Below are positions 818-20,666 of a stretch of DNA of 64,000 nucleotides, piece by piece (within the stretch, counting starts at the first letter, position 1; each line of letters begins with the position of its first letter). The translations under genes were made by a program, and so were the position numbers. Under the pieces are notes generated by a model, which saw only the letters and a list, made by a program, of their open reading frames with translations, did no database searches and had not been told where the DNA came from. The DNA is from Gammaproteobacteria bacterium. Lineage in GTDB: Bacteria > Pseudomonadota > Gammaproteobacteria > Eutrophobiales > Eutrophobiaceae. Location of the stretch: contig CBDEUC010000003.1 in the NCBI GenBank assembly GCA_965243105.1, positions 2,487,541 to 2,551,540 on the forward strand, in the 5' to 3' direction.

Positions 818-1441
818 ATGAACAGAATCTCGATACTTACCCGGCTAATTTGCCTTGCTGCCATGGCAGTGCTCGTAGTTGCCTGTGCTAACAGGGTCTA
901 TAATCCCCTCGACGACTTTGAAGAAGTTGCGCCTGCAACGGCACTCGAGGTACCGCAGGTATCGCCGGAAAACGCGCCTACCGCAGAGCTCGCAATGATC
1001 AAGAGAGGTCAATATCTTGTTGAACTGCTGGGTTGCGCCAATTGTCACACTGACGGCGCGCTAATTGGCCAACCGAATTCGGATAAAGCACTCGCCGGTT
1101 CGAGCATCGGCATCGCATATTCAAATCCACTGCAATATGAATCGCCAGGAATTGTCTTCCCGTCGAATCTCACTCCGGATCGGGAGACGGGTATTGGTGA
1201 CTGGACAGATATCCAGTTAATGAAAATGATTCGCAGTGGTATTGATCGACATGGCCATCGAAAACTGTCCGTAATGCCCTGGCCTGCCTATTCCGTTATC
1301 TCCGACGACGATGCCCTTGCCATGACAGCCTACCTGCGAAACCTTGAGCCGGTAAAGAATCGCGTGCCTGCTAACGTTGCGCCCGGTCAGGTATCAACTG
1401 AGCGCTACGTGCATTTTGGCATGTACCAGAGCCGGGAGTAG
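818..1441 (+). CDS. c-type cytochrome, probable lipoprotein
   Basis: Single CxxCH haem-binding motif (GCANCHT). N-terminal signal with lipobox-like LVVAC. Confidence 0.6.
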   Translation: MNRISILTRLICLAAMAVLVVACANRVYNPLDDFEEVAPATALEVPQVSPENAPTAELAMIKRGQYLVELLGCANCHTDGALIGQPNSDKALAGSSIGIAYSNPLQYESPGIVFPSNLTPDRETGIGDWTDIQLMKMIRSGIDRHGHRKLSVMPWPAYSVISDDDALAMTAYLRNLEPVKNRVPANVAPGQVSTERYVHFGMYQSRE

Positions 1442-1449
1442 ATTTTCGA

Positions 1450-3333
1450 TTAGTAGCTGGCGTCTATCCAGGGCCCGTAAAAGACCCGTTCGCCTTCTAT
1501 GAATTCAATGCCAAGCTGGTATTGAAATGTATCACCACTTAATACCCACGAGGGGATGACAATGTTGGCACTCTCGCCAACCTGCAGGGTGACGTGATCA
1601 GAGTATGCGTGCGCCTGGAAAACCTGTGCATCCTGGCGTACTCGAACAGTCACCGTGTAGGAATTGCCGGATGTTATGCCTTCAAGCTCCAGGGTCACAT
1701 CCAGCTCATCGTCAATTCTCCTGATACCTCCGTGAACAGTGGGTATGGTTTCCACGTCTTCCGCGTATTCTGACAACAGCTGCAGAAAATCTGTATTCAC
1801 TGCCGAGTAATCACAGTTGGCCCTGTTCAAAACGGAAGCCCAGAATGCCTCGCCTGCCAGGTTTGTTGCACCCAGGTCTGCCATTGCGCGAACAACGTCT
1901 CCGGGAGCCTGTTGACCACATGCCCGGGCCAGGGAAGATACCCAGGCTTCACCAATCGCATAAATCACATTTTCATCATACTTTTCAGCAAATACTGCCG
2001 CAGACATGAGATCATCAAACTTCAGGTCGTGCCTGGTCCAGGCGGCTGATGCAAGGATTCTAAGTGCGTTTCGTGTTTCATCGAGTTCAAGGGTTTCGTA
2101 AGAAGCCCACTCGGCAATCCCTTCGCTAAAAAAGCGGGCATCATCGGCATGGTCACTCATGCGTCGGTCTGAACCAATACCCACGAGAACATGCACTGTT
2201 TCATGCACGAATACGTGGGCGCGTTCATCCGCATCTCGCAAAGCACTGCTGCGCATACGCAGTTTCTTCCAACCAGCAATGCCCAGGTGCTGATCGCTGG
2301 TATCGGTAAGATCAGCCACTACCTTGCCTGACAGGCTTATCCCGAGTAGTTGCTCAACGTTCCTGTAATGTTCGTCAGCTTCAAGCTGTAGAAGCTGAGC
2401 GAATTTCTCGTCCCTGGCATAATGTGAAAGTCGGTAGAACTCGGTTTCTACAACTCGTGGGCGATAGTTCCCTCCATCGCCTGCCAGTCCCCCTACCATG
2501 TCGGAGAACATGGTAATGCTAAGGTAGCTCAGAATTACCATGGCCGCGGCCAGGGTAGTTAAAATGCCTTTCACGCGAGGGCCCAGCCTGTTGGTAAACC
2601 TGACAGAGGTATCCTGGTCGCTGGATGTCCACAGGCGACCCGCCAGGAAAAAACACAGGCTGGCAAGAACCAGGTGATAACTCCATGCTTTTACAGAAAA
2701 AAGTATTTCCTCGCCGCGGTAATCGGGCACCAGCAGGGAAGACGGATTTAGAAATTTTAGTGCCGGAACACCTGCCTCAAGAACGCTTATACTGATCCAG
2801 TAAATAATTACGGCAAGCACTCCGAAGACACGGAACCAGGAGGCAAATAATCCGATGGCCAGCCCGACAAAACATACGCCAAAACCAAGAGCGAGCTCAA
2901 GCCACCACAGTTTCCATGAAAATTGAGTTTGGGTAACTGAATTCACATTAAAACTATGTACGAAGAAGGAGTTGAACTGGCTGATGATAAAGATTGCCAG
3001 GAGTATGAAGGAGGTAGCAAGTACCTTGGTAAAGTAAACTTGCCAGCGTGATACAGGCAGACTCCATAGAAGGTTTAGTGTTGAATGTTCCCGCTCATGG
3101 GGGAATATCCTGTAGGCGGCGACGAGGCCGATGACAAAATAGGTGCCGGCAGAGATCATTGCGTTCTCAGTCGTAAGTATTCCTGACAGGTAGGACCAGG
3201 TGATCGTATCGGGTGTTTGTTCGGAAAGAAGGAAATACCAGCCAAGTATTTCAATTGCGAAAAGGGCCAGGATAAGCGGAATCATGTGATGCAACTCTTT
3301 CCTGGCCAGGCTCAGAAAACAGGCAGCATTCAT
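1450..3333 (-). CDS. ABC-2-type membrane permease fused to an M1-like (gluzincin) zinc peptidase domain
   Basis: N-terminal about 250 aa is multi-TM. The C-terminal soluble domain has HETVH followed by E about 23 residues later (HExxH...E). 4-bp overlap with the upstream permease, so the two are translationally coupled. Confidence 0.5.
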   Translation of the reverse strand: MNAACFLSLARKELHHMIPLILALFAIEILGWYFLLSEQTPDTITWSYLSGILTTENAMISAGTYFVIGLVAAYRIFPHEREHSTLNLLWSLPVSRWQVYFTKVLATSFILLAIFIISQFNSFFVHSFNVNSVTQTQFSWKLWWLELALGFGVCFVGLAIGLFASWFRVFGVLAVIIYWISISVLEAGVPALKFLNPSSLLVPDYRGEEILFSVKAWSYHLVLASLCFFLAGRLWTSSDQDTSVRFTNRLGPRVKGILTTLAAAMVILSYLSITMFSDMVGGLAGDGGNYRPRVVETEFYRLSHYARDEKFAQLLQLEADEHYRNVEQLLGISLSGKVVADLTDTSDQHLGIAGWKKLRMRSSALRDADERAHVFVHETVHVLVGIGSDRRMSDHADDARFFSEGIAEWASYETLELDETRNALRILASAAWTRHDLKFDDLMSAAVFAEKYDENVIYAIGEAWVSSLARACGQQAPGDVVRAMADLGATNLAGEAFWASVLNRANCDYSAVNTDFLQLLSEYAEDVETIPTVHGGIRRIDDELDVTLELEGITSGNSYTVTVRVRQDAQVFQAHAYSDHVTLQVGESANIVIPSWVLSGDTFQYQLGIEFIEGERVFYGPWIDASY

Positions 3334-5258
3334 GGCATAACCAACTTGTCATAGCCGAACCTTACAATCATGTTATAGGGCATGAGCTGGCATTCAAGGG
3401 CGGTGTAAACACGATTTCCTTTACCATACCTGCCTGTTATAGATCGAATCACCTGCTTTTGCCCAACCGGCCATGTGAACTCGTCTTTTCGTAAAGTATT
3501 AGGCGCGACGGGAATGTTGTAACCGGGAAGCTTGCGATGAAGCGCGGTACAACTCATCTCTGAAGCAAGGGCTTTCTCAAGCTCAAGGTTAAATTTTAAA
3601 ACCCGCTGTCCGCTCTCGTTAACCTCGCCGGTAACGGAATACCTGGCTACTGGAATGGCTGCGATCCTGCTGGCGTACTCTTCTTGCCGTGCAAGTTGTT
3701 CTACCTGGTTTCTCCATTGCTCAACAAACCCAGGCCATGAAAGGCCGGTTGCTGACTCAAAACGTGCTGTGAAAGGCTTACGCCAGTCCGACCACCAGTC
3801 ACGTATATCTCCATGAACCTCGCGTCGAAATTCGGACTCTGCGAATTGCCTCACGGTGTCATGACCCACCAGGTCTTCCAGTACGCGCCAACCTGAGTAA
3901 GAAAGGGCAAGGCCGAGGGATTCGCCTATGCGATCGCTGGTCGTTTCCCACTGGGTAATTGTTTTTTCATCTATGTTGACTCGTTGCGAGACATACATGG
4001 CAAGAACGAGTAAATCATTTGCAGGGGTATCAAGCGACCCAGGGGGTTCTCCGTTATGCACGACTAACCAGCTTGAAAACCCATCCAGGAACCAGTGCGA
4101 AGGCTCGAGTATTACCCTGTTTAACGAAGCGGTGGATAACAACTGGTGAACAACAAAAATACCAAAATGCGGAAAATTCCAGCCGGGTGCGTCAATAAAG
4201 TTTGCATCAACCCTTATACCTTGCGTGGTGCTGGCCAGGCGTGTGGAGTACGCCTTGGATTTAGCAATGGGCGAAAGTGAAATACGGGTGATGTATTCAT
4301 CCTTGTTAAAGGGCAGGTATGACTCAACCTTGGATAGCGGTATTTTCAACTGGTCTGCGAGTGTAATTGCATCCTGTTCATATTTTGGATCCAGGTAAGC
4401 TATCTCAAGCTTTTCTCGAGCGATAACATGTTCCTGCGTAAAGGCAAAGTTTTGTTCATTGCCTGGAGGCTCGAGCATGCCAATCATGCCGAGTGATACA
4501 ACCACCAGCACAAATAGAAAGCTCTTGTCACGCGTTGACATGGGTACAGCAAGACTTTCTACGTAGGAACCATCGTCGACGTTCATCAGTAGAAAAGCCA
4601 GGGCTATAGCAATCACCCCTATAGCCAGGGATATTCCCAGCTCTGCAAGGGGGAAACTGTCCCGTTCAAAACTAAAAAGTTCCTGGTCGATGAGTGCAAC
4701 AGGACCAAAGCGGTTGAGCTCCAGTGATGTTTCTGTGCTGATAAAAAAAAGAGCGACTGCTGCAAGGCTGGCGAGTGGTATTCGCCAGCGTCCCAGTAGT
4801 GAAAAAACAAATACGCAACTCCACACGACAAAAACGTAAGCCCCAAGGCGGGTAGCCATGATCACGGAAAAGCGGAATTCGAGAGGTTCGTGAAAACTGG
4901 CGGTGTACATTGAATACCCCCAGACAGAAAACGCGAAAATACTGACCACCACGAGGCCTATAGCGTACTTTACAGATACCATGTAAGCAGGCCTGAAGGG
5001 GAGCGCCTCGATAAATCGTTGTGTCCTGCTGTAGTATTCCTGGGTAACCAGGAAGTAACCAACCCCGAGTGCGATAAAGACAAGTGCCGGCCAGGCAAAA
5101 ATGGGTACCAGCTGCAGGTCACTTAAGACTGCATCACTGAACAACATGAACCTGACGATGAGCCATGCAAATATTATTGAAACCAGCGACAACCAGGCAA
5201 AGCTAGCGCGATGTTGTCGTAGCTCCTTGCCAGCCAGGCCGCGCAGGATAGTGATCAT
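3330..5258 (-). CDS. ABC-2-type membrane permease with a large C-terminal soluble domain (paralog of 1450-3333, no HExxH)
   Basis: Six-TM-like N-terminal region followed by about 390 soluble residues. Overlaps the ATPase gene stop by 4 bp. Confidence 0.45.
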   Translation of the reverse strand: MITILRGLAGKELRQHRASFAWLSLVSIIFAWLIVRFMLFSDAVLSDLQLVPIFAWPALVFIALGVGYFLVTQEYYSRTQRFIEALPFRPAYMVSVKYAIGLVVVSIFAFSVWGYSMYTASFHEPLEFRFSVIMATRLGAYVFVVWSCVFVFSLLGRWRIPLASLAAVALFFISTETSLELNRFGPVALIDQELFSFERDSFPLAELGISLAIGVIAIALAFLLMNVDDGSYVESLAVPMSTRDKSFLFVLVVVSLGMIGMLEPPGNEQNFAFTQEHVIAREKLEIAYLDPKYEQDAITLADQLKIPLSKVESYLPFNKDEYITRISLSPIAKSKAYSTRLASTTQGIRVDANFIDAPGWNFPHFGIFVVHQLLSTASLNRVILEPSHWFLDGFSSWLVVHNGEPPGSLDTPANDLLVLAMYVSQRVNIDEKTITQWETTSDRIGESLGLALSYSGWRVLEDLVGHDTVRQFAESEFRREVHGDIRDWWSDWRKPFTARFESATGLSWPGFVEQWRNQVEQLARQEEYASRIAAIPVARYSVTGEVNESGQRVLKFNLELEKALASEMSCTALHRKLPGYNIPVAPNTLRKDEFTWPVGQKQVIRSITGRYGKGNRVYTALECQLMPYNMIVRFGYDKLVMP

Positions 5259-6154
5259 AACTTGACTGATTCGCTGACCATGTCGACAAAGATATCTTCC
5301 AGGGAAAGCTGTTCCACGGTCCAGGGTGCGCTGACCGTTGCTGGAATGTCCTGTTCATGAAATCGAAGGGTGACTGCCCGCCCGGCATCATTGCGTCGGT
5401 CCTGCAATACACTCGTCGAGCATGCGAGTAATTCATCCGGCAGGTCCATATCAAGATCTATGCCTTCACCTGCGCTTAACATATATCGTCGTATAGAAGC
5501 TCTCAGGTTTTCAAGTGAACCCTCGTAGAGCATTGTGCCGCGATTTATAATGCCAACAGTATCTGCTGCGCGCTCAATTTCATCGATGAGGTGAGTGGAA
5601 AATAGCGTGGTCCTGTGTGCCCTGACAGTATGGTCGCGCACAATATCGATAAATTCCCGGCGCGCCACCGGGTCCATACCCGTGGTGGGCTCATCCAGCA
5701 GCAACAATTTTGGATGATGTGCCAGCGCCAGTGACAGGGCCAGCTTGGCGCGCATGCCGCTGGAAAATGCCTGTATCTTGCGATCGGTAGGGACCTCGAA
5801 AATACGCAGGATACGCTGGTATTCTCCATCATCCCAGCCTGGATAAAAGGATGATACGAACCTGCCCAGCTCACCAGCGGTCATCCATTCATAAAAGTGG
5901 TGTTCCTGTGCGACATAGCCTATGGATGCCCGCGGCTTGAAATCATTCCTTCCAACGGTATTGCCAAGTATGGAAACTTTGCCCGAATTTGCATGGGTGA
6001 TCCCCATGATGATACGCAGGGCCGTCGATTTACCCGCGCCATTTCTTCCCAGGAAGCCATAGACTTGCCCTTCTTCAACGACCATGTTCAGTCCATTGAT
6101 CGCAACCAGCTGTCCATACTTCTTGTGTACATCGCTAAGCTCTAATGCACTCAT
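5255..6154 (-). CDS. ABC transporter ATP-binding protein
   Basis: Walker A GRNGAGKST, ABC signature SSGMRAK, Walker B LLLLDEP, and a C-terminal accessory domain. Confidence 0.85.
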   Translation of the reverse strand: MSALELSDVHKKYGQLVAINGLNMVVEEGQVYGFLGRNGAGKSTALRIIMGITHANSGKVSILGNTVGRNDFKPRASIGYVAQEHHFYEWMTAGELGRFVSSFYPGWDDGEYQRILRIFEVPTDRKIQAFSSGMRAKLALSLALAHHPKLLLLDEPTTGMDPVARREFIDIVRDHTVRAHRTTLFSTHLIDEIERAADTVGIINRGTMLYEGSLENLRASIRRYMLSAGEGIDLDMDLPDELLACSTSVLQDRRNDAGRAVTLRFHEQDIPATVSAPWTVEQLSLEDIFVDMVSESVKL

Positions 6155-6452
6155 ATCATCTACTCTACCATCAACATCCAGGTTTTAGTTGACAAATTCC
6201 TGCAAAATTCTCGCACTAAAACAGTTTAAAGCGGGCGAACTGGCTTCTTGACCCGGGAATAGACCGCCCTCAGTGTCATTGTAGTAACCCCGGGCAAAGT
6301 ACCCGAAACTACTGCTTTTCTGGGGAATATTCGTACTCACTTTCCTGCCAGTCATTGTTTTTCTTGGCCGTTTAACCCCTTCCGGTTTTTGCTGCGTTTC
6401 AATAAATACGGACACAGGACCGAATTCGATAATCCACAGCAGGAGAAATTCC

Positions 6453-8261
6453 ATGAAGATAATTAACAAGCAATGTGTGCTGATTGCCGCGACTGTATTT
6501 TTGGTCGCCTGTAGCCAGGATGAATCCACCAAGATATCAAAGTCATCCGGTAAGCCAGGGGACCTCAAGCCGGTTCCGATGCAGGTAGAAAGCGCAATAA
6601 CAAACCCTGTCGATATTTCCAGCGTCGAGCCAGTTGAAATTGATGAGGCCAAAATTGCGATGGAAGCTTCATTACCCCCGCTGGAGCGTGCCATGGAAGC
6701 ACCAGCGACGGTAGCGGGAAAACCGAAGAAAACCAGGGAAATCAGTATTGCCAGGATGGAATCTGCCGATTTTGCGGCACCTGCCTTTTTCCGGGAAATA
6801 CGCGCTGCGAGTGAGCCGCGAGACAGGGAAAATTACGCACATTTCGAAGACAACCAGACCAGGCGTGTCATGGAACATCCCGTTTCCACCTTCAGTATCG
6901 ACGTCGATACCGGCTCCTACGCAAATGTAAGGAGGATGCTGAATGCTGGCAGGTTGCCAGCACGCGACGCCGTCAGGACAGAGGAACTGGTGAATTACTT
7001 TTCCTACGATTACCCGGCGCACAACAACCGTGACGAACCGTTTGCCCTTTACAGGGAAATCGCACCGAGTCCGTGGAATGAAAATACCTACCTGTTACAC
7101 CTTGGTATCAGGGGTTATGACCTGGCAGAAACATCCTTGCCGGCCTCCAACCTGGTTTTCCTCGTGGACGTGTCAGGTTCCATGCAATCAGCCAACAAGC
7201 TGGAGTTACTGAAATCTTCCCTGAAACTGCTTACCAGGCAGCTCGATGCGGATGATCGGGTCTCGATCGTGGTATACGCCGGTGCTTCGGGTGTTGTCCT
7301 TGAACCGACTCCCGGGAATCAAAGGGCCAGGATCATTGCCTCGCTGGAAAGTCTTCAGGCAGGTGGTTCTACCAATGGTGCCGCGGGTATTCGCCTGGCC
7401 TATGCAATGGCGGAACAGGGATTCATCAAGGGAGGAATAAACCGGGTCCTGCTGGCAACCGATGGCGACTTCAATGTTGGCACAAGCAATATTGAGCAGC
7501 TAAAGGATCTTGTCGCTGAAAAGCGAAAAACAGGGATTTCGCTGAGTGCCCTGGGCTTTGGTACCGGGAATTATAACGATTACCTGATGGAGCAAATTGC
7601 AGATACCGGCAATGGTAACTACGCCTATATCGACACCCTGAACGAGGCACAGAAGGTACTGGTCGATGAAATGAACTCAACACTCTTTACGATTGCAAAG
7701 GACGTAAAAATCCAGCTGGAGTTTAACCCGGCACTTGTCTCGGAGTATCGACTCGTGGGCTATGAAAACCGCGTGCTGAACAGGGAGGACTTTAATAACG
7801 ACAAGGTTGATGCCGGAGAAATTGGCGCAGGACATACCGTAACTGCGCTTTACGAGATAAGCCTGGTTCCAGGAAAAGGCAAGTTGATTGACCCCCTGCG
7901 TTACCAGCAGGAAAAGCTGCCGGGTGCCACTACTGATGAACTGGCCTTCCTGAGGATCCGCTACAAGGAACCGGACTCTGAGACCAGCAAGCTTCTCGAG
8001 TGGGCGCTGGATAAAAAAGAGATCATCGCTGATATAGAAAAAACCAGCACAGACTTTCGCTTTGCATCAGCCGTGGCCTCCTTTGCCCAGGAGTTACGTG
8101 GTGGCAGGAATATCGGTGCTTTCTCCTACCCACAGGTTTACCAGCTGGCGAAAGGTGCACTGGGCGAGGATAGCTTTGGTTACCGTAGCGAGTTTATCCA
8201 GATGGTAAAACTTGCCGGGTCAATCAGTACGCCAGGCAGGCATGCACAGCTTATTCGTTAG
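6453..8261 (+). CDS. von Willebrand factor A domain lipoprotein (YfbK-like)
   Basis: Lipoprotein signal (LVACSQ). vWA MIDAS motif DVSGSM. Length and architecture match vWA+DUF3520 proteins. Confidence 0.7.
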   Translation: MKIINKQCVLIAATVFLVACSQDESTKISKSSGKPGDLKPVPMQVESAITNPVDISSVEPVEIDEAKIAMEASLPPLERAMEAPATVAGKPKKTREISIARMESADFAAPAFFREIRAASEPRDRENYAHFEDNQTRRVMEHPVSTFSIDVDTGSYANVRRMLNAGRLPARDAVRTEELVNYFSYDYPAHNNRDEPFALYREIAPSPWNENTYLLHLGIRGYDLAETSLPASNLVFLVDVSGSMQSANKLELLKSSLKLLTRQLDADDRVSIVVYAGASGVVLEPTPGNQRARIIASLESLQAGGSTNGAAGIRLAYAMAEQGFIKGGINRVLLATDGDFNVGTSNIEQLKDLVAEKRKTGISLSALGFGTGNYNDYLMEQIADTGNGNYAYIDTLNEAQKVLVDEMNSTLFTIAKDVKIQLEFNPALVSEYRLVGYENRVLNREDFNNDKVDAGEIGAGHTVTALYEISLVPGKGKLIDPLRYQQEKLPGATTDELAFLRIRYKEPDSETSKLLEWALDKKEIIADIEKTSTDFRFASAVASFAQELRGGRNIGAFSYPQVYQLAKGALGEDSFGYRSEFIQMVKLAGSISTPGRHAQLIR

Positions 8262-8334: not shown

Positions 8335-9255
8335 TTATTCCATTCCGAGTAATTGGCGGGTCTCACGCATGACGATTTTCCAGGCCGTGGAAATCGGCGC
8401 AATGACATCAAAATGCCCGGCGCCGTCGACAACAGCGAGGCTGATATCATCACCTGCTGCGCGCGCCTTCGCCAGGAATGCGGTGCTCTGCCTGAGAGGT
8501 ACAAGCACATCTGCGGCGCCATGCACCATGCGCACGGGTACATTAAGCGGTAGTAACTGTACCGGGTTTACCTGTGCTACGCGTTCAGGCACGTCTTCCG
8601 GCTCGGCCATGAGCAAACCAGGGACACCGGTATTGCAATCCTGGGTGTCATACTCATGGCGATAGCTTGAAAGGTTACTGATAGCTGCCAGGGGTACCAC
8701 TCCCCTTATTTTTAGCGGGTTGGCGCTATAGAATTCGCTACTGGAGTCAAGGTTGTTTCTTGCCGCGTACCACAGCACCAGGTGCCCCCCGGCCGAGTGT
8801 CCCATCAACACCACGCGCGAGAGGTCAAGTCTGTGCCCGGGTGCAATTTCGCGAAGGTATTCAATACTGTTAGCCAGGTCATGCATGGTGCCCGGCCAGG
8901 CGCCTCCTTCATTACCAATACGACGATACTCCACGGTCCATGAGGCAATACGAGCCCGGGCCAGTTCTCCGCTCAAGTTTGCTGCCATGGTTAAATCAAA
9001 GTCGGAGAGCCAGCAACCACCGTGGACGAATACCACGACTGGATGCGGTCCTTTACCCGCAGGCAAACGTAATTCGCCAAACTGGTATTGGCCTGGCCCA
9101 TAATTGATTACATGGTCTGCTGGTGGCTTGGGTAGTGCACTGAGTTGCTCCCAGCTAATCGGCAAGCCTTTTTCACCGGCCTGGATACTGGCCACTGAAA
9201 GAGTGCCCAGCACTGCTATGAGTACAAGGAAATATTTTTTACAGTGTCTGCTCAT
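8335..9255 (-). CDS. Secreted alpha/beta-hydrolase (esterase/lipase family)
   Basis: Signal peptide. HGGCW oxyanion motif and GHSAGG nucleophile elbow. Confidence 0.7.
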   Translation of the reverse strand: MSRHCKKYFLVLIAVLGTLSVASIQAGEKGLPISWEQLSALPKPPADHVINYGPGQYQFGELRLPAGKGPHPVVVFVHGGCWLSDFDLTMAANLSGELARARIASWTVEYRRIGNEGGAWPGTMHDLANSIEYLREIAPGHRLDLSRVVLMGHSAGGHLVLWYAARNNLDSSSEFYSANPLKIRGVVPLAAISNLSSYRHEYDTQDCNTGVPGLLMAEPEDVPERVAQVNPVQLLPLNVPVRMVHGAADVLVPLRQSTAFLAKARAAGDDISLAVVDGAGHFDVIAPISTAWKIVMRETRQLLGME

Positions 9256-10658
9256 TTTGAAAACACCATTAAACGTAACAACGGGTAGAGGATAACAACA
9301 GTCAGGCAGGACGTGATGACTTCAATTGCAATAATATCTGCCATAACATAGTGTGCCATGATAACGCTGGAAAAAAGTGTAATCACGCCGGCCCAGTTAA
9401 CATTCTCGGGCTCGTCATCTGAAACTTCCAGTCCTGCCTGTATTCGAGGCTTCACTAAAAAGTAATCCACAAGGATTATCCCGGACAGGGTGCTCAGCAA
9501 TACACCGAGCAGGCTGATCCAGGCCTCTACCAGTTCAAGAATATGACCGTAAAGCATCAGCAGGCCGATAATGTTGGCAAAGACGATGAAAGTGAAGCGA
9601 CCCGGGCGCCATTTTATCAATGCGTCGAAAAAGTTTGTCAGGGAAAGCGACGCGGCATAACAATTAAGTACCTGCGCCTTTGCCTGCGCAATAAACATGA
9701 GTAGAAAACCAGTTACACCGCCATAAAGCATGAATGCTGCGGCAATACTATCAGGACTTTTTAACACCAGTTGCTGTGCTTCCTGCATGGAAAGACCCTG
9801 TGACTCGACATAGTAATTGGCGAGCCCAGCCGCTGCCGCGTACATCAGGATACCCCCTGTCAACATGACCAGTACTGACTGGAAAAAACCGCCAATGAGC
9901 ACCGCAGAGGTTGCATGCATGGTAGAGCGGGCATAGCGCCCATAGTCGACCGACACCAGTGGCAGGGCACAGGCCGGACCAATGAGAATATTCAAACTGA
10001 AAACAAACTTGTCCCAGTCAGACTGTATACCCATGGATCGAAGTGCCTCTGCCGGGAACTGGCTTTGAAACGTGAGGACACCTGTTAATGAACTATCAGC
10101 CTGCATGACGACCTTGACGAGCACCCATGCCATGACCAGCAAAAAAGCGATTAGCAGGAGCGACGAAAAGCGTGCAATGATGGCAAAACCAAACGTGGTC
10201 ACGAGGATCCAGAGAAGGGTCAGGCCGCCATATATAATGAGTTTCATGGCGAGCCCATCGGACAACTGGAAAAAATGCAGGATACCCCTGTAAAGCAGGG
10301 CATTTTCCAGGGCCAGCATTCCGATTATGAGGAAGCTGAAGATTACGGACGCCAGTACAGAGCCCTTGATGCCGAGCCCATATTGACGGGTTACAAGGGT
10401 ATTGGAGTACCCGGTATGGTAGGCAACGTGGGAAAGGCCCCAGCCGAGGAAACTGCCAAATATCAATGAAACAATACCGGCGATCAGGGCAATTTTCACG
10501 CCGGCAACAAAACAAACCAGCGCACCAAAAAAAAGGATCACCAGGGTAGTCACAATACCCGCTGTGTTCCAGGTCAGGCTCAACCAGCCAAGACGTTCCT
10601 GTTCAGGAACTGCCTCGAGGGAATGGTCATCTACAAGCGCTTTAAGGTTCTCTGCCAT
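9252..10658 (-). CDS. NCS1-like (purine-cytosine permease family) transporter
   Basis: About 12 predicted TM segments. N-terminal region resembles CodB/NCS1 permeases. Weak call. Confidence 0.4.
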   Translation of the reverse strand: MAENLKALVDDHSLEAVPEQERLGWLSLTWNTAGIVTTLVILFFGALVCFVAGVKIALIAGIVSLIFGSFLGWGLSHVAYHTGYSNTLVTRQYGLGIKGSVLASVIFSFLIIGMLALENALLYRGILHFFQLSDGLAMKLIIYGGLTLLWILVTTFGFAIIARFSSLLLIAFLLVMAWVLVKVVMQADSSLTGVLTFQSQFPAEALRSMGIQSDWDKFVFSLNILIGPACALPLVSVDYGRYARSTMHATSAVLIGGFFQSVLVMLTGGILMYAAAAGLANYYVESQGLSMQEAQQLVLKSPDSIAAAFMLYGGVTGFLLMFIAQAKAQVLNCYAASLSLTNFFDALIKWRPGRFTFIVFANIIGLLMLYGHILELVEAWISLLGVLLSTLSGIILVDYFLVKPRIQAGLEVSDDEPENVNWAGVITLFSSVIMAHYVMADIIAIEVITSCLTVVILYPLLRLMVFSK

Positions 10659-14654: not shown

Positions 14655-15467
14655 ATGGAGGAAAAGAGTCCGGAAGATGCAGGGTTGCCTTCGCCCGAGA
14701 GCCTGGTGCAGGACATTGGGCGGGGCAGGTTACAAGCTGAGGGCTTACTCGTCTCCCGTTACTGGCGCAGCCTGTATTTCATACTCCAGCGCCGAAGCAA
14801 TGATGTTGATCTCGCTGCTGACATTGCCCAGGACACCTTCATGGTGGTCATTCGCAAGGCCCGCAATGGTGAAATAACCAATCCTTCTGCTGTCGCCGCG
14901 TTTATTCGCCAGACCGGTATTAACCTGCTTATCGCGCATTACAGGAAGGAAAAAAGAAGAAATACAGAGGCTGACAGCGATATTATTCTTGACGCCGCCG
15001 ATAGCTCACCTGGCCTGTTACAGTCAGTAGAAGCAGAAAAGGTATTCGAACTCGTCATCCAGGTGCTGGAAGAGTTAAAGGTCGAAAGAGACCGCGAGAT
15101 TCTAAAGGCCTATTTTTTACATGAAGAAGAAAAAGCCGCGATATGCGACCGCCTGGGGCTGAGCCACGAACATTTTGACCGGGTACTTCACAGGGCCAGG
15201 GGCAGGTTAAAGCAATTACTTGAATTCAAGTACGGGGAAATCAAGCTAACTGGTGCAGAAGAGAGCATCGCCAGTACCCTGTTACTGATGCTTTTTCTCA
15301 TTGAAACAGCTCATATTCCTTATCATCCGCATAATTTCTCTAATTCTGCATTTACAGTGAGAGAACCGCACTCTTCCCATCACTATGAAGGCAGAAACGA
15401 GATTTACGGAAGAATCTTCAACTCGGGAGGGGAGGACAGCTATACCTGTCCCATGAAAACCAGTTGA
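14655..15467 (+). CDS. ECF-type RNA polymerase sigma factor with a roughly 80-aa C-terminal extension
   Basis: Sigma-70 region 2 (DIAQDTFMVV) and region 4 (REILKAYFLHEE...). The extra C-terminal segment includes a hydrophobic stretch. Confidence 0.75.
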   Translation: MEEKSPEDAGLPSPESLVQDIGRGRLQAEGLLVSRYWRSLYFILQRRSNDVDLAADIAQDTFMVVIRKARNGEITNPSAVAAFIRQTGINLLIAHYRKEKRRNTEADSDIILDAADSSPGLLQSVEAEKVFELVIQVLEELKVERDREILKAYFLHEEEKAAICDRLGLSHEHFDRVLHRARGRLKQLLEFKYGEIKLTGAEESIASTLLLMLFLIETAHIPYHPHNFSNSAFTVREPHSSHHYEGRNEIYGRIFNSGGEDSYTCPMKTS

Positions 15468-15478
15468 GAGTGAATTAA

Positions 15479-16117
15479 ATGGATAAAGACTACATAGAAG
15501 AGCAGGACATTTCGGGTAAATACCTGCGTGGCGAGTTAACTGCTGAAGAAATAGAGAGCTTTGAGCTTCTGTTCATGGATGACCCGGAACTGTTGGAGCG
15601 ACTTGAACTTGACGCAGCGTTTTTTCGACATGCAGGTGGTGCGCACGAAGAAATTGATAATGTTAATAAAAACAGCACTTGGTTATCGTTTATCCAGGTT
15701 GCCATGGGCATGGCAGCGGGTGTACTGATCATGACTTTTGTACCCCAGTTAACCAGGGATGATGAGGATTTACTGGACACCCTTGGTATTGCCCAGGTCG
15801 AATACATTGATGAACTCAGGGGTGTTGATCCGGGTAAGGTTCCAACACGCTCGATTGAGTTAAACAGTAGCGCAGAGAACCTGGTGATTGTCATTGATAC
15901 CGGTGACATATTAAACATGTCCTATGACATCGTTATTAACAGGAACTCAGGAAACAGGCAGGTGGTCTCCAGCGTTATTAATGTCGCTGATACAACGGGT
16001 GAACTTGTCATTTATATTCCCGTGAGACTTATTAGTGAAGATGTTTATGTCCTGACAATGTATGAGAGTGGCACTCGTGATGTGATGAAAACATTCTTTC
16101 TTGATGTAAGCCATTAG
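15479..16117 (+). CDS. Single-pass membrane protein in the anti-sigma position (putative anti-sigma factor)
   Basis: Lies 12 nt downstream of the ECF sigma gene. Cytoplasmic N-terminus, one TM (WLSFIQVAMGMAAGVLIMTFV), periplasmic C-terminus. No zinc-binding anti-sigma motif. Confidence 0.4.
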   Translation: MDKDYIEEQDISGKYLRGELTAEEIESFELLFMDDPELLERLELDAAFFRHAGGAHEEIDNVNKNSTWLSFIQVAMGMAAGVLIMTFVPQLTRDDEDLLDTLGIAQVEYIDELRGVDPGKVPTRSIELNSSAENLVIVIDTGDILNMSYDIVINRNSGNRQVVSSVINVADTTGELVIYIPVRLISEDVYVLTMYESGTRDVMKTFFLDVSH

Positions 16118-16145
16118 CACGGTTCTACATTGCCCTGTAGAAAAA

Positions 16146-17444
16146 ATGAAAAAAAAAGATATACGGGCACTTATTCCGGAGATAGCGACGAGCATGACGG
16201 GTGCCAGTTATGGCTCTTCTACATTGAGCGCCGGTATGACCTACCTGGGTCAGTTTATCTCTCACGAAATCGTTCCTAACACCATAAAGCTGACTACTTC
16301 ACGGGTAGTCACAAGAGAACTTAACCTTGACAGCGTCTATGGTGACAACAGTCTTTACACCAACCTGCTCGGGGATAAGGATAATATTTTCTTTCGCAAA
16401 AACGGGCGGTTTGTCCTGAATGAAAACAATCCGCATGACCTGAACAGGATTGAAAAGGGCCCCTTGAAGGGAACCGCCGTTATACCGGAGCAGCGTAATG
16501 ATGAAAACATGATCATTGCGCAACTGCACCTGCTGTGGCAAAAGTTACACAATGCCCTGATGGATAAAGGTATCGCAAGGAGTGCCCTGGATGCGCGAAA
16601 GATAGTCACGCTCATGATTCAGGTGGTTATTATCGAGGATTACCTGCACCAGGTGCTGGACGAGAATGTGTTTCACGCTTACTTCAGAAGCAGCAGGAAA
16701 TACCTGAAATTCGATTTCACCAGCATCCCGACTTTTTTTTCACACGCTGGTTTCCGCTTCGGGCATAGCATGGTCCGTGAAGTCTATGAAGTGAACAACG
16801 GCAGGAAGCTGCCCCTGTTAAGTCTCTTCGGCAGTGAAATGCCTATCCCGGGCGACAAGGCCATTTCATGGGACAAGTTTTTTAGAATCGACGGTAGTGA
16901 AAGTGCGCAGAAAGCGCTTGAAATAAATACTTTTATCAGCACACACATGAAAAGCATACCAGGCAGTGGTTTGCATAACATCACAACCCATATTATCGAG
17001 CGTAATCTTCTTGCCGGGTTGGAAGCCGGTTTGCCAGGTGGTAAGGAGTTTGTACAGTCAGTTATGGAACAATGCAATCGCTGCGACATCAAGAAAGACC
17101 TTGACCTCCACCTGCTGGAGGATATCTCGCAGGCTTCTTTCAGCGATGTCAAAGGCCTTTCCATTGATAACCTGCCATTGTGGCTCTATATCCTTTACGA
17201 GGCACAGGTGGAACATTCAGGTTTCAGGCTGGGCGTCCTCGGAAGCATGATCGCCGCGGAGGTATTAAGTGCCTCAATGTCCGGTGCTGCTATTTCCGTA
17301 TATAAGAATGACACTTACGAGGTAGATGAAGTTATGGAAATGCTTGACGAATTAGTTCCGGGATTCACGTCGGGATTTGATGTGAATTTCAAACAGGCCG
17401 ACATGTTCATGTCGAATTTGATCAAATTTGTGGAAAACAGCTAG
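16146..17444 (+). CDS. Short bacterial haem peroxidase of the peroxidase-cyclooxygenase (animal haem peroxidase) superfamily
   Basis: Distal-His region LGQFISHEI. REHNR-like helix RNDENMIIAQLHLLWQKLHN. Proximal FRFGH motif (AGFRFGHSMV). No signal peptide. Confidence 0.5.
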   Translation: MKKKDIRALIPEIATSMTGASYGSSTLSAGMTYLGQFISHEIVPNTIKLTTSRVVTRELNLDSVYGDNSLYTNLLGDKDNIFFRKNGRFVLNENNPHDLNRIEKGPLKGTAVIPEQRNDENMIIAQLHLLWQKLHNALMDKGIARSALDARKIVTLMIQVVIIEDYLHQVLDENVFHAYFRSSRKYLKFDFTSIPTFFSHAGFRFGHSMVREVYEVNNGRKLPLLSLFGSEMPIPGDKAISWDKFFRIDGSESAQKALEINTFISTHMKSIPGSGLHNITTHIIERNLLAGLEAGLPGGKEFVQSVMEQCNRCDIKKDLDLHLLEDISQASFSDVKGLSIDNLPLWLYILYEAQVEHSGFRLGVLGSMIAAEVLSASMSGAAISVYKNDTYEVDEVMEMLDELVPGFTSGFDVNFKQADMFMSNLIKFVENS

Positions 17445-17455
17445 GAGGAGGAAAG

Positions 17456-17950
17456 ATGGCTAAAGACTATAAGAAGGAAACGGACTGGGCGGCAGGGCCC
17501 CACAACGTATCGACAGCTATATTCGAGGTGGATAATTCCCAGGCAGAAAAACATACCGATCTACATCCGTATCTTCCCAGTGACAATGGCAAGTACAAGT
17601 TCAAATCGCTGGTGTATCCCGACGGAGCGGGTGGTCACTTTATTTTCCAGATACCCGATGATAACGGGCCATGGGATAAAAACATGGGCGTTATTATGCG
17701 TTCGCTGAAGTTAAAATTGCAGGATGATGAAAAAGGTAATCCTTACCTGCTGGACGCAAATGTCAGCTACGATCTGAAAGGGGGTAGCATTGGTAATGAT
17801 CCCGGTTGGGATGTCACCGAGTGGCGTGTCGATGTTGCGAATATTGGTAGGGAGGATGAAGAAATCCTGGACACGGTTACCTGGACCAAGGAAGGTGTAG
17901 GTACGATCCAGACCTTCGCCAAGTGGCGTCCTTACAAAGAGCTCGCATAA
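17456..17950 (+). CDS. Hypothetical 164-aa protein with no recognisable family
   Basis: Strong RBS (TAGGAGGAGG) 6 nt before the ATG. Sits between the peroxidase and CHAT genes with 11-nt and 22-nt gaps. Confidence 0.5.
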   Translation: MAKDYKKETDWAAGPHNVSTAIFEVDNSQAEKHTDLHPYLPSDNGKYKFKSLVYPDGAGGHFIFQIPDDNGPWDKNMGVIMRSLKLKLQDDEKGNPYLLDANVSYDLKGGSIGNDPGWDVTEWRVDVANIGREDEEILDTVTWTKEGVGTIQTFAKWRPYKELA

Positions 17951-17972: not shown

Positions 17973-20666
17973 ATGGGAGTGAGATTCCTGTTTTTAAGTT
18001 TGAGCCTTCTGGTTTGTCCAGGGGCTCTCGCCTGCGATGTTGAGTTGATTTTCTCAAGGTCATTGCCTTCCGCGCAGGGATCAAGGAGTGACCCTGTCGG
18101 AGCGCTGGCAATTCACGAGGAATATTTGCAGCAGGTGTCCTGCAGAAGCAGCCCCGCTACTCGAGCCGGTAGTTCTATCAAGCTTGTCGAGCTAATCCTT
18201 AACAAGGCGCAACATGGGTCGGCTAGCCGGGAAGCCTTGCATGAAAATGCGATTGCGCTGATCAGTGATGCAAAAAATGAAAGTAAGGCTAATGGTTTGT
18301 ATATCGAGTATGCACGCCTTCTTCAATTGCAGTGGGTCCTGCATCTCCAGATAAATGAATCCATAAAAGGCCTGGAGCTGCTACCCGAGGCTATTGATTA
18401 CTTAAAACGAGCTGAAGCTCCCACTGAATTGATCGCGGAGATTTATAAAGATCTTTCCTACACCTATATCCTGGCAGGAGAATTCTCCAGTGCGAAAACA
18501 TACCTGAGACGGGCTGTTGTTCTTACAGTAAATTCCAGCGATGACGATCTAAAAACAGAAATTATCCTGTCTATCGCTGATGCCTATAGAAAAACGGCCG
18601 AGCTCGAAATTGCAACAAGATACTATCGGCAGGCATATTCAATCAACGAGGCGAAAAACAATGAATTCAAGTACGACGCCCTGCTCAAGCTGGGTACCCT
18701 CGACAGGGAACAGGGCTACATTGACAGGGCTGTTAAGAAACATCTTAATTCCTACGAATTCTTTAAAAGTGGAAATTATTACAGGTCACTGGTAGCTGAA
18801 ATCGAACTTGCCCGTGATTTCCTGGCAAAGAGTGATCTTGAACAGTCAAGCAAGTACGCATTACTCGCCTTCAATGATAGTCGTGCGTTCACTGAGCAAA
18901 AACTCGATGCAGTGCTGGTATTGATGAAATCCGATCCGGGTAACTGGGAAAAATGGTCGAATGAAATCCAGGCTATCCTGGAGAGCGCTATAGCAAGATC
19001 AGGCACTGATGTTGCTCACCCGATACGCCAGCTGGAGCATGCTCGCCTGGAACTTGGGTATGTTTCAGAATCAGGAGATGAAGATGCTATCAGGCAAGTA
19101 GGTGAAAAAGGATTACGCGTATTCACAAGGTTACGCGATGACTTGAACCGCTCAGAGGAGGCTTACCACGGCTGGATGGCGTCCGCAAAACCCTTTATCA
19201 GCACCTATATCAAGACACTCTATCACACGGACAAGGAGCGCCTGTTTGATGTCCTTGAAAAAACCTACTCAATTAGTCCGAAACCGAACCAGTTACAAGG
19301 CGCTCCCCTGCTTAATCAGCAAAAGGAACCAGAAGAGATTGCCCTTTTTGAAGCCTATCTTGGCGCCGAGAAAATGGTGGTCGATGCCAGTTCGGACTGG
19401 GAAAAGGAACGTAATACTACTAACAGGGAAAAGCTGGAGCAGCTCAAAACAAGCAGGGACCTGGCAAGAGAAGCTTACCTTGAATCGAGGAAAAGCAAGC
19501 AAGAGAAAATTATTCCTCGGCCCGAAGTCGTCGAAATGACACCGAGTGAAATCGCTCCTGGAGACCTGTTTCTCAGGTATTACCTGCAAAAAGATATCAG
19601 CCTGTTGCTGGCAAGGCATGCGGGTGGTGAAGAGATTATCGAGTTGCCAGCTCGCTCAGAAATAAGAAAGCTGGTGAACGAACTGGACGAGCTTTTCCTG
19701 TCTGGTGGATCGAGCCGTGCAAAGCGACTGCAGTTACTGGGCCAGTTACGGGTGCTGTTGCCAGTACAATTATTGCAGGACAGGGATTTCCTCAGGCTGG
19801 TCATCCTGCCCGATGACGAGATCCACAGGGTACCCTTTTCCGCGATCAACCTGGAAAACCGGGATGGCTTCTATAAACCTGTTTCGAGCAAGTATCGAAT
19901 TACACGAACACATTCGGCATACCAGTACTATGCCGGGAATAGCCAGGGCAACATGAATGTTGAAAATACCGGTGCTGATATCCTGGTATTTGCCGATCCA
20001 CATTTTGACGAATATCGGCATGCTGGTAGTTCCTCAGACTCTTTCAGGAACTGGTCAAGGAACCTTGCTCGATTACCGCACACAGCGGATGAAGCCAGGC
20101 AAATCGTTACTCTTTTCCCCGATAAGAAAACCGCTGTTTTCCAGGGTAAAGAAGCTACGGACGCAATCCTGTTATCAGAGCAGGCAAGATTGGCAAATGT
20201 TCTGCATATTGCCACTCACGGTTACTACAACCAGAACACACCGGACATTGTTGGTGTCGCAACAGCGGTGGAAGACAAGGATGGTAATCCACAAAGGGGT
20301 TTCCTGAGCTTGTCAGCATTGCTGAGCATGCCCTATAACTCGGACTTAATTGTCATCAGCGGTTGTGAAACTATGCTTGGAAAAGAATATGACGGTTTTG
20401 GCGTGCAGGGCCTTGCCCAGGCCTTCATTGCACAAGGTGCTGGCTCCGTTGTCGGTACGCTATGGAAAGTTGCAGATAAACCCACCTCGATATTTATGAG
20501 GTACTTCTACGAGGCGCTGAAATCAAATGGCGGCAACAGTTCCCTGGCATTAAATACTGCCAGGAACAGGTTGGCATCAATGGGGAGATACAGGGATCCG
20601 ATTTACTGGGCTGCATTTGTCCTGACTTCGGCGAATACCTCGTTTGAGGAAAACATTCTTCATTGA
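17973..20666 (+). CDS. Secreted TPR-repeat protein with a C-terminal CHAT (caspase-like) peptidase domain
   Basis: Signal peptide (LLVCPGALA). TPR-like helical repeats. CHAT His/Cys dyad (HIATHGYY and ISGCETMLG). Confidence 0.75.
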   Translation: MGVRFLFLSLSLLVCPGALACDVELIFSRSLPSAQGSRSDPVGALAIHEEYLQQVSCRSSPATRAGSSIKLVELILNKAQHGSASREALHENAIALISDAKNESKANGLYIEYARLLQLQWVLHLQINESIKGLELLPEAIDYLKRAEAPTELIAEIYKDLSYTYILAGEFSSAKTYLRRAVVLTVNSSDDDLKTEIILSIADAYRKTAELEIATRYYRQAYSINEAKNNEFKYDALLKLGTLDREQGYIDRAVKKHLNSYEFFKSGNYYRSLVAEIELARDFLAKSDLEQSSKYALLAFNDSRAFTEQKLDAVLVLMKSDPGNWEKWSNEIQAILESAIARSGTDVAHPIRQLEHARLELGYVSESGDEDAIRQVGEKGLRVFTRLRDDLNRSEEAYHGWMASAKPFISTYIKTLYHTDKERLFDVLEKTYSISPKPNQLQGAPLLNQQKEPEEIALFEAYLGAEKMVVDASSDWEKERNTTNREKLEQLKTSRDLAREAYLESRKSKQEKIIPRPEVVEMTPSEIAPGDLFLRYYLQKDISLLLARHAGGEEIIELPARSEIRKLVNELDELFLSGGSSRAKRLQLLGQLRVLLPVQLLQDRDFLRLVILPDDEIHRVPFSAINLENRDGFYKPVSSKYRITRTHSAYQYYAGNSQGNMNVENTGADILVFADPHFDEYRHAGSSSDSFRNWSRNLARLPHTADEARQIVTLFPDKKTAVFQGKEATDAILLSEQARLANVLHIATHGYYNQNTPDIVGVATAVEDKDGNPQRGFLSLSALLSMPYNSDLIVISGCETMLGKEYDGFGVQGLAQAFIAQGAGSVVGTLWKVADKPTSIFMRYFYEALKSNGGNSSLALNTARNRLASMGRYRDPIYWAAFVLTSANTSFEENILH

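Follow-up and report, generated by a model that had tools for sequence, protein, structure and literature searches.

An ABC-2 transporter operon whose two permeases carry fused soluble domains, one with an M1-like zinc-peptidase site and one with a degenerate site

Without ATP in the periplasm, energy-dependent proteolysis is normally limited to the cytoplasmic face of the membrane, where FtsH, Lon, and Clp act. Several ATP-binding cassette (ABC) systems serve as points of comparison. LanFEG expels membrane-active peptides. In PCATs, a cytoplasmic cysteine peptidase is attached at the N-terminus of a type IV exporter whose nucleotide-binding domain is also fused, and cleavage takes place before export. 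In NosDFY, ATP reportedly drives partner switching and no substrate is moved across the membrane, as the 2022 Nature structure paper is said to describe. In the YbbAP-TesA system, ABC machinery delivers membrane-extracted molecules to a periplasmic hydrolase (PMC12646458). The subject of this study is an operon in a stretch of 64,000 nucleotides from a gammaproteobacterium of the Eutrophobiaceae (assembly GCA_965243105.1, contig CBDEUC010000003.1, positions 2,487,541 to 2,551,540 of the forward strand); this whole stretch is called the window. The operon consists of three minus-strand open reading frames (ORFs) that encode an ABC ATPase (299 amino acids), permease A (642 amino acids), and permease B (627 amino acids). 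Each permease combines an ABC-2 transmembrane (TM) core with a large C-terminal soluble domain. Judging from its sequence and its structural model, permease B is likely a catalytically active zinc peptidase, and permease A carries a degenerate copy of the same domain.

The soluble domains of permeases B and A

The soluble domain of B was modelled with AlphaFold (AF2) as residues 290-627 (338 residues) on a 15-sequence alignment. The model has a predicted local distance difference test score (pLDDT) of 90.6 and a predicted TM-score (pTM) of 0.89. Its layout is a mixed beta-sheet with a long helix, the HExxH helix, a helix bearing a glutamate, a helical bundle, and a seven-strand beta-sandwich. 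A Foldseek search of the PDB with this model gave 41 matches at E <= 1e-3. Ranks 1-38 were all M1-family proteins (E 1e-6 to 4e-4, probability 1.00), including IRAP, ERAP1, ERAP2, APN, PepN, EryP (7v9n, rank 27), and the inactive paralogue TAF2 (7edx_B). Just under this block came LTA4H, a cold-active aminopeptidase, and M60 gluzincins. The beta-sandwich resembles Ig-like and beta-sandwich domains, and it contributes to the ~350-column alignments with IRAP and ERAP. Sporadic weak Pfam matches to the soluble domain were almost all to clan-MA zincins as well (Peptidase_MA_2, M1, M9, M48, SprT, M78, DUF6782, and BSP).

The residues expected of a zinc peptidase are present in this fold. HETVH occupies residues 377-381 of B, and E404 lies 23 residues past H381. 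In the model, H377, E378, and H381 sit on one helix (79-98 in model numbering) and E404 sits on the next (103-126), which is the layout of a gluzincin. Exactly five columns were invariant in a 127-member alignment that reached down to ~20% identity, and these were H377, E378, H381, E404, and Y458. Furthermore, HExxH was present in 121 of 121 full-length representatives, and the glutamate of the [FW]FxEG motif occurred at one fixed spacing in 103 of them. The HExxH of B is therefore no accidental occurrence of the motif. The B family and E. coli PepN have the motif grammar HExxH...xEG...YxxG in common. At the level of sequence comparison, Y458 of the Y-x-x-G motif lies 54 residues past E404, and Y381 of Y-E-K-G in PepN lies 61 residues past E320. 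B is read as an active gluzincin because the catalytic set is invariant and because both the fold and the motif grammar are M1-like.

The original prediction had noted the HETVH motif of B with a glutamate about 23 residues on, and had called the domain M1/gluzincin-like. The motif is where it was said to be, and the 38 best structural matches uphold the likeness. Is B then a member of the M1 family? Six M1 features were tested. The fold was found, and four features were not. First, no sequence model matched: Peptidase_M1 (PF01433) gave no match to the window protein, and only one of 65 members reached E 2.8e-4. Second, the spacing between the histidine and the glutamate is x22, compared with x18 in PepN, so the HExxH-x18-E feature is absent. 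Third, the B family has HLGIAGW in place of GxMEN, the exopeptidase motif that binds the substrate N-terminus. Fourth, the flanking domains of M1 enzymes, namely the N-terminal beta-rich domain I and the C-terminal helical (ARM/HEAT-like) domain, are not in the soluble region of B. Likewise, the soluble domain of B had no match in Pfam, NCBIfam, or the PDB sequences, and the family profile aligned with E. coli PepN at an hhalign probability of 0.1%. True M1 membership was rejected on these defining features. The domain should be treated as a separate clan-MA family without a database model, that is, a gluzincin with M1-like fold and chemistry. From its motifs, B is probably not an aminopeptidase and probably cuts as an endopeptidase. 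The GIAG segment (B residues 351-354, window 2272-2283) is the sole part of the B model with pLDDT <50, and it may be a mobile active-site loop or an edge strand that becomes ordered only upon substrate binding.

On a different view, the soluble domain has no peptidase activity: it could serve as a binding module with a zincin fold, hydrolyse a substrate that is not a peptide, or lie in the cytoplasm. In favour of this view, the structural matches include TAF2, an inactive protein of the M1 fold, LTA4H is an example of an M1 site that can process substrates other than peptides, and the GxMEN motif is absent. However, every residue of the catalytic set is unchanged in 127 of 127 sequences, whereas the rest of the domain drifts to ~20% identity. 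As for a cytoplasmic location, the seven TM segments, the charge bias, the homology to NosY, and the cysteine co-variation considered below point to the periplasm instead. This view is very improbable.

Alongside a likely active zinc peptidase in B, the operon encodes its dead counterpart in A. HExxH was found in none of 23 A-type copies and in 24 of 24 B-type copies. Permease A aligned with the B family over its full length (hhalign probability 98.4%, E 6e-15, 526 aligned columns, including the whole TM domain). In these columns, IFVVH of A lies over HETVH of B, with I367 and F368 in the places of H377 and E378, and FLDG lies over FSEG, with D392 in the place of E404. In the Myxococcota, A copies have also lost the remaining histidine and have kept an E-P-x-x-W-x-[RL]-D-G motif. 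The A model has its secondary-structure elements in the same order as B. On sequence grounds, the soluble domain of A is an ancient paralogue of that of B whose zinc site has been lost. This agrees with the earlier suggestion that A, which lacks HExxH, may be a pseudo-peptidase paralogue, and the site is degenerate in all lineages examined. The domain of A probably assists in binding or enclosing the substrate.

The transmembrane machinery and the location of the soluble domains

The ATPase has intact Walker A (GRNGAGKS), Walker B (LLLLDE), and H-loop (STH) motifs, and its signature motif is the variant FSSGMR. Its best NCBIfam matches were PmtA, DrrA, and lantibiotic-protection ATPases, all under the equivalog cut-offs. 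The stop and start codons of adjacent genes overlap by 4 bp in an ATGA at both junctions. The gene positions and the translational coupling through these overlaps had been predicted, and the ORF map matches both.

Permease B was matched by two Pfam models, ABC2_membrane_2 (PF12679; E 1e-9, 38.5 bits against a gathering cut-off of 27.2) and ABC2_membrane_4 (PF12730; E 1.1e-7, 32.4 bits against 27). Among 65 diverse family members, ABC2_membrane_4 matched 62 and ABC2_membrane_2 matched 61. Permease A had no match in Pfam. The profile of the 127-member family, when compared with PDB sequences, matched NosY at E 6.3e-5 over TM1-6. The full-length AlphaFold model of A (pLDDT 78) led to the same protein: TMt was 0.62-0.64 when its TM domain was superposed on NosY structures (0.64 over 253 columns for 7o12_E). 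Furthermore, both permeases retain an N-terminal KEL amphipathic helix and a cytoplasmic E-x4-T-x6-LP-x9-K loop, both of which are common to NosY. Thus, the TM part of both permeases belongs to the ABC-2/NosY-type permeases, with one added seventh helix. The complex would contain the ATPase in two copies and permeases A and B in one copy each.

Seven hydrophobic segments were seen in the family-averaged hydropathy of both A and B, and the model of A has an amphipathic helix at residues 2-15 followed by seven TM helices. The mean number of lysines plus arginines was 2.1, 2.4, and 2.8 for the N-terminus and the odd loops, compared with 0.0, 0.7, and 1.9 for the even loops. This bias is a positive-inside pattern and places the N-terminus in the cytoplasm. 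As TM1-6 map onto the six helices of NosY, the seventh helix is an addition that brings the C-terminal domain to the periplasmic side. A further indication comes from a pair of cysteines in B. C472 and C507 co-vary: both are cysteine in 78 of 127 sequences, almost all of the others have jointly aromatic pairs, and a lone cysteine occurs in only three. The pair is compatible with a putative disulfide in an oxidising compartment. Taken together, the TM count, the positive-inside bias, the NosY homology, and the co-varying cysteine pair strongly indicate that the soluble domains of A and B are periplasmic. The beta-sandwich of A has conserved cysteines of its own (window about 3390-3551), C570 in 8 of 9 homologues and C623 in 7 of 9, and they may form a second periplasmic disulfide.

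The soluble domains measure about 376 amino acids in A and about 347 in B, where TM7 ends near residue 280. An earlier estimate of roughly 370-390 amino acids for both was right for A and too large for B. The concern that the HExxH might lie in a TM helix can be set aside, as the motif is on a soluble, confidently modelled helix >95 residues past TM7.

Distribution, possible mechanism, and gene context

A hidden Markov model (HMM) search with the soluble-domain profile against 1.84 billion cluster representatives (50% identity clusters) yielded 468 proteins at E <= 1e-3, of which 255 reached E <= 1e-30. In other words, the family comprises ~470 clusters at 50% identity. A word-index search had returned only 18 and 9 relatives, and a rerun with the 127-sequence profile added none. 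That search alone is misleading on rarity, since the family seemed extremely rare by it. Among the best 150 of the 468 representatives, nearly all are 605-660 amino acids long and have the domain at about residues 285-640; the shorter ones resemble fragments. Fusion of the soluble domain to a permease is therefore the family rule.

This regularity bears on the idea that the peptidase domains are simply anchored in the membrane on an ordinary ABC-2 exporter, with an activity that is uncoupled from the ATPase cycle. Domain fusions can indeed mean co-localisation only. However, the fused position and length are the same in nearly all of the best 150 of the 468 representatives, a dead A is kept beside a live B across phyla, and a single TM anchor would suffice for tethering. 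Independent functions of the two parts are for these reasons improbable.

A set of 24 loci was assembled from a scan of species-representative genomes (21 loci) and from exact look-ups (3 loci). The scan loci came from uncultured Pseudomonadales and other Gammaproteobacteria, Rhodospirillales, Burkholderiaceae, and many Myxococcota (mainly Sandaracinaceae). Every carrier found so far is uncultured. The gene order ATPase, A, B held in all 22 loci that were long enough for all three genes, and A and B were adjacent in 24 of 24. The window holds a single copy of this module. In one locus from a Sandaracinaceae metagenome-assembled genome (MAG), L023, two ORFs (5091-6257 and 6271-7062, spanning 5091-7062) make up the A-type gene, whose dead-site region aligns only partly; a frameshift, a fault of the assembly, or a pseudogene could account for the split. 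An extracytoplasmic function (ECF) sigma factor and a TonB-dependent receptor lie directly upstream of the triad in a single locus, that of the gammaproteobacterial MAG GCA_028284825.1 (L001, 1661-4800). A sensor histidine-kinase-like gene occurs within about 1.5 kb of the triad, up- or downstream, in the Sandaracinaceae loci L011, L012, L013 (9570-10634), L014, L016, and L019. It may reflect plain synteny because it is not conserved outside the Sandaracinaceae.

No Pfam or NCBIfam model covers the soluble domains, and public sources name the family only 'hypothetical protein' or 'ABC transporter permease (subunit)'. An exact-sequence lookup of the window protein gave no record, and a literature search on fusions of ABC-2 with M1 or gluzincin domains found nothing relevant. 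It is thus well supported that the architecture is phylogenetically broad and is without an annotation or a published study that could be found, and the original prediction was correct in calling it neither standard nor characterised. A RefSeq name, 'ABC transporter permease/M1 family aminopeptidase', is presumably in use for large proteins of Bacteroidota; if so, it would be an annotation precedent for ABC-2/M1 fusions.

How could such a machine work? In a model of 'extract and cleave', the permease pair would lift a peptide from or across the inner membrane, and the pair of live and dead domains would capture and cut it. ATP binding and hydrolysis would shift the permease pair, and this movement would bring the peptide up to the periplasmic side of the inner membrane. 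A hydrophobic or amphipathic peptide lodged in the membrane or spanning it would be the most likely substrate. Once raised, it would be seized by the live and dead domains together and cleaved by B. The model supposes that the substrate is a peptide, that the soluble domains of A and B act as an asymmetric pair, and that ATP turnover is coupled to cleavage. It is favoured because peptide and drug expellers have similar ATPases, because one-ATPase/two-permease systems like LanFEG act on membrane-active peptides, and because YbbAP-TesA is a precedent for an ABC machine that presents membrane-extracted molecules to a periplasmic hydrolase. The preference is a tentative one. A wider claim is that cytoplasmic ATP hydrolysis, acting through a NosY-type heterodimer, drives membrane extraction and/or gates the M1-like pair, which would amount to ABC-powered proteolysis in the periplasm of Gram-negative bacteria, carried out by a peptidase family that database models do not yet recognise. 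This claim is possible but doubtful.

Several observations weigh against extraction and cleavage. The likeness to M1 is at the fold level only, and family profiles compared with PDB sequences matched no M1 structure. In the fold search with the full-length A model, the soluble domain had no significant match and only the TM domain did (NosY). M1-likeness of A therefore rests on its homology to B. Moreover, the label of exporter is a tentative one because NosY, the closest solved relative of the TM domain, sits in a complex that hands copper between periplasmic partners. By analogy, this relay favours pure mechanotransmission, in which nothing crosses the membrane and the ATPase cycle opens, closes, or activates the peptidase pair on a periplasmic or envelope substrate, as in NosDFY and FtsEX-EnvC. 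The result would be an ATP-gated protease in a compartment devoid of ATP. That ABC machines can drive periplasmic hydrolases is established for FtsEX and YbbAP. Open and closed states of ERAP1 and IRAP are among the Foldseek matches, and the permanent pairing of a dead and a live domain suggests a clamshell that can be driven mechanically. However, type VII machines are laid out differently, with four TM helices and the periplasmic domain between TM1 and TM2, and the ATPase is most like those of DrrAB, PmtABCD, and LanFEG, which are true exporters or expellers. Mechanotransmission without transport is the main rival of 'extract and cleave', conceivable but less probable than it.

Gene context also weighs against the favoured model. 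A first neighbour analysis was swamped by shadow ORFs in high-GC loci, and the cleaned set was used. After removal of the shadow ORFs, no flanking gene was common to more than 3 of the 24 loci, and no conserved small ORF was found within 1.5 kb of the triad. As no neighbour is conserved, the triad is a self-contained module and its context gives no clue to the substrate. The same results count against a maturation exporter, which would export a specific ribosomal peptide (a ribosomally synthesised and post-translationally modified peptide [RiPP], a bacteriocin, or a signal peptide) and remove its leader in the periplasm, like C39 ABC transporters or EryP/AplP. EryP, an M1 lanthipeptide leader peptidase, is among the structural matches, and the best family matches of the ATPase include PmtA and a lantibiotic-protection ATPase. 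But the 24 loci show neither a conserved precursor nor a modification enzyme, and unrelated genes flank the operon in the window. This reading is the one that the original prediction had proposed, with export coupled to processing. A cargo gene may lie elsewhere in the genome, but a maturation exporter is quite unlikely.

A zinc peptidase hard-wired to the periplasmic side of an ABC transporter would be a simple bypass of the missing periplasmic ATP. FtsEX and YbbAP-TesA represent a recent theme, ABC machines at the service of periplasmic hydrolases, to which proteolysis would be added. With a membrane-active peptide as its substrate, the module could confer resistance by expelling and destroying that peptide. 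With leftover signal peptides or misinserted proteins as the substrate, it would be a new system of envelope quality control. Apart from the mechanism, the clusters found here define an unrecognised metallopeptidase family with five invariant catalytic residues, and the universally retained dead paralogue offers a natural experiment on how a pseudo-enzyme partners with an active enzyme.

The features of the operon are listed in Table 1. A promoter scan of the intergenic region upstream of the ATPase gene found no consensus sigma-70 site above shuffled background, and a terminator scan found nothing above shuffled background. A cytochrome-c-like gene (818-1441, plus strand) and the permease B gene (stop at 1450, minus strand) are convergent, with 8 bp between their ends and no terminator detected. 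There is no space for a conventional terminator after permease B because of this short distance. The neighbours of the triad in the window encode a universal stress protein, a cytochrome c, a YfbK-like VWA protein, and an esterase. No M1 enzyme was found elsewhere in the window; an ORF of 870 amino acids encodes aconitase, not PepN. Further away, an 897-amino-acid protein (17973-20666, plus strand) has a C-terminal CHAT (caspase-like protease) domain (Pfam E 2e-50). Its gene is preceded by four co-directional ORFs (270, 212, 432, and 164 amino acids; 14655-17950), and all of them could be one operon. A 468-amino-acid, clearly multi-TM protein (9252-10658, minus strand) has no Pfam match at E <= 1e-3, and the start of its gene overlaps the stop of a BD-FAE/alpha-beta hydrolase gene (8335-9255) by 4 bp.

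Table 1. Operon features, with positions in the window and the basis of each assignment
Feature	Position	Strand	Basis
Presumed operon promoter region, divergent intergenic, 298 bp, upstream of the ATPase gene	6155..6452	.	ORF map
ABC ATPase, 299 amino acids, DrrA/PmtA-like	5255..6154	-	Pfam ABC_tran E 2.2e-27
ATPase Walker A	6026..6049	-	
ATPase Walker B	5690..5707	-	
ATPase H-loop	5591..5599	-	
Permease A, 642 amino acids: 7-TM ABC-2 core and predicted periplasmic pseudo-peptidase domain	3330..5258	-	hhalign to B family, AF2 model, NosY superposition
Permease A TM domain, residues 1-266	4461..5258	-	Hydropathy/charge profile, AF2 model
Permease A coupling-loop motif E74-x4-T-x6-LP-x9-K97, cytoplasmic	4968..5039	-	
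Permease A extra TM7	4461..4535	-	
Permease A degenerate active-site region, residues 367-393, IFVVHQLL...EPSHWFLDG	4080..4160	-	hhalign column mapping
Permease B, 627 amino acids: 7-TM ABC-2 core, predicted periplasmic M1-like zinc-peptidase domain, and beta-sandwich	1450..3333	-	Pfam, AF2, Foldseek, conservation
Permease B TM domain, residues 1-280	2494..3333	-	Family hydropathy and charge profile, profile match to NosY
Permease B coupling-loop motif E80...T85...LP93...K103	3025..3096	-	
Permease B extra TM7, about residues 249-280	2494..2589	-	
Permease B catalytic (thermolysin/M1-like) domain, residues 290-531	1741..2466	-	AF2 model, Foldseek
HLGIAGWKK loop/strand of B, 5' of HExxH like M1 GAMEN, without Glu	2263..2289	-	G351 in 126/127, A353 in 116/127
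HETVH of B: H377 and H381 predicted zinc ligands, E378 predicted general base	2191..2205	-	Invariant 127/127
E404 of B within FFSEG, predicted third zinc ligand; corresponds to PepN KEG motif	2122..2124	-	Invariant 127/127
Y458 of B within Y-A-I-G, predicted transition-state-stabilising Tyr	1960..1962	-	Invariant 127/127
Putative disulfide of B, C472 (1918-1920) and C507 (1813-1815)	1813..1920	-	Cys co-variation among 127 sequences
Permease B C-terminal 7-strand beta-sandwich, residues 532-627	1453..1740	-	DSSP on AF2 model

Comparison with described systems

The closest solved relative of the TM machinery is NosFY of the NosDFY(L) complex (PDB 7o0y, 7o12, 7znq). The two systems have in common the TM fold, the cytoplasmic E...GT...LP...K loop, and an ABC-2 permease that serves a periplasmic protein domain (NosD in that complex). 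In contrast, NosY is a homodimer with six TM helices, and NosD is a separate beta-helix protein without peptidase activity. The operon described here has two distinct permeases, a seventh TM helix, and a fused M1-like domain.

The closest structural matches of the B soluble domain are the M1 aminopeptidases (PepN, APN, ERAP1/2, IRAP, LTA4H, and EryP). They have the same catalytic fold and active-site grammar, and a beta-sandwich follows the catalytic domain in ERAP and IRAP as it does in B. B differs from them in that it has no sequence-level match, has x22 in place of x18 and GIAGW in place of GxMEN, lacks the flanking M1 domains, and is fused to a transporter.

One ATPase with two paralogous permeases is also the composition of LptB2FG and LanFEG-type systems, and the LptFG permeases each carry a periplasmic domain. 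No sequence relationship to these systems was detected, however. The domain of LptF and LptG is a beta-jellyroll between TM3 and TM4, and LanE and LanG have no soluble domain.

YbbAP-TesA and FtsEX-EnvC resemble the operon in concept, since they too put an ATPase cycle in the cytoplasm at the service of a periplasmic hydrolase. They differ in having 4-TM permeases of the MacB/FtsX type and a separate hydrolase, which is an esterase or an amidase activator and not a zinc peptidase. Identity with type VII (MacB/FtsX) systems was rejected because the permeases have seven TM helices and a C-terminal soluble domain, as opposed to four TM helices and a domain between TM1 and TM2.

PCATs (C39) are likewise peptidases fused to an ABC transporter subunit. 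Here the peptidase is a zinc peptidase at the C-terminus, on the periplasmic side of an ABC-2 permease, and the ATPase is the product of a separate gene. Identity with PCATs was rejected on the C-terminal zincin, the separately encoded ATPase, and the lack of any C39 or ABC_membrane match in Pfam. The operon thus combines two known kinds of system, an ABC machine working with a periplasmic hydrolase and a fusion of a peptidase to an ABC transporter, and is in this sense not categorically new.

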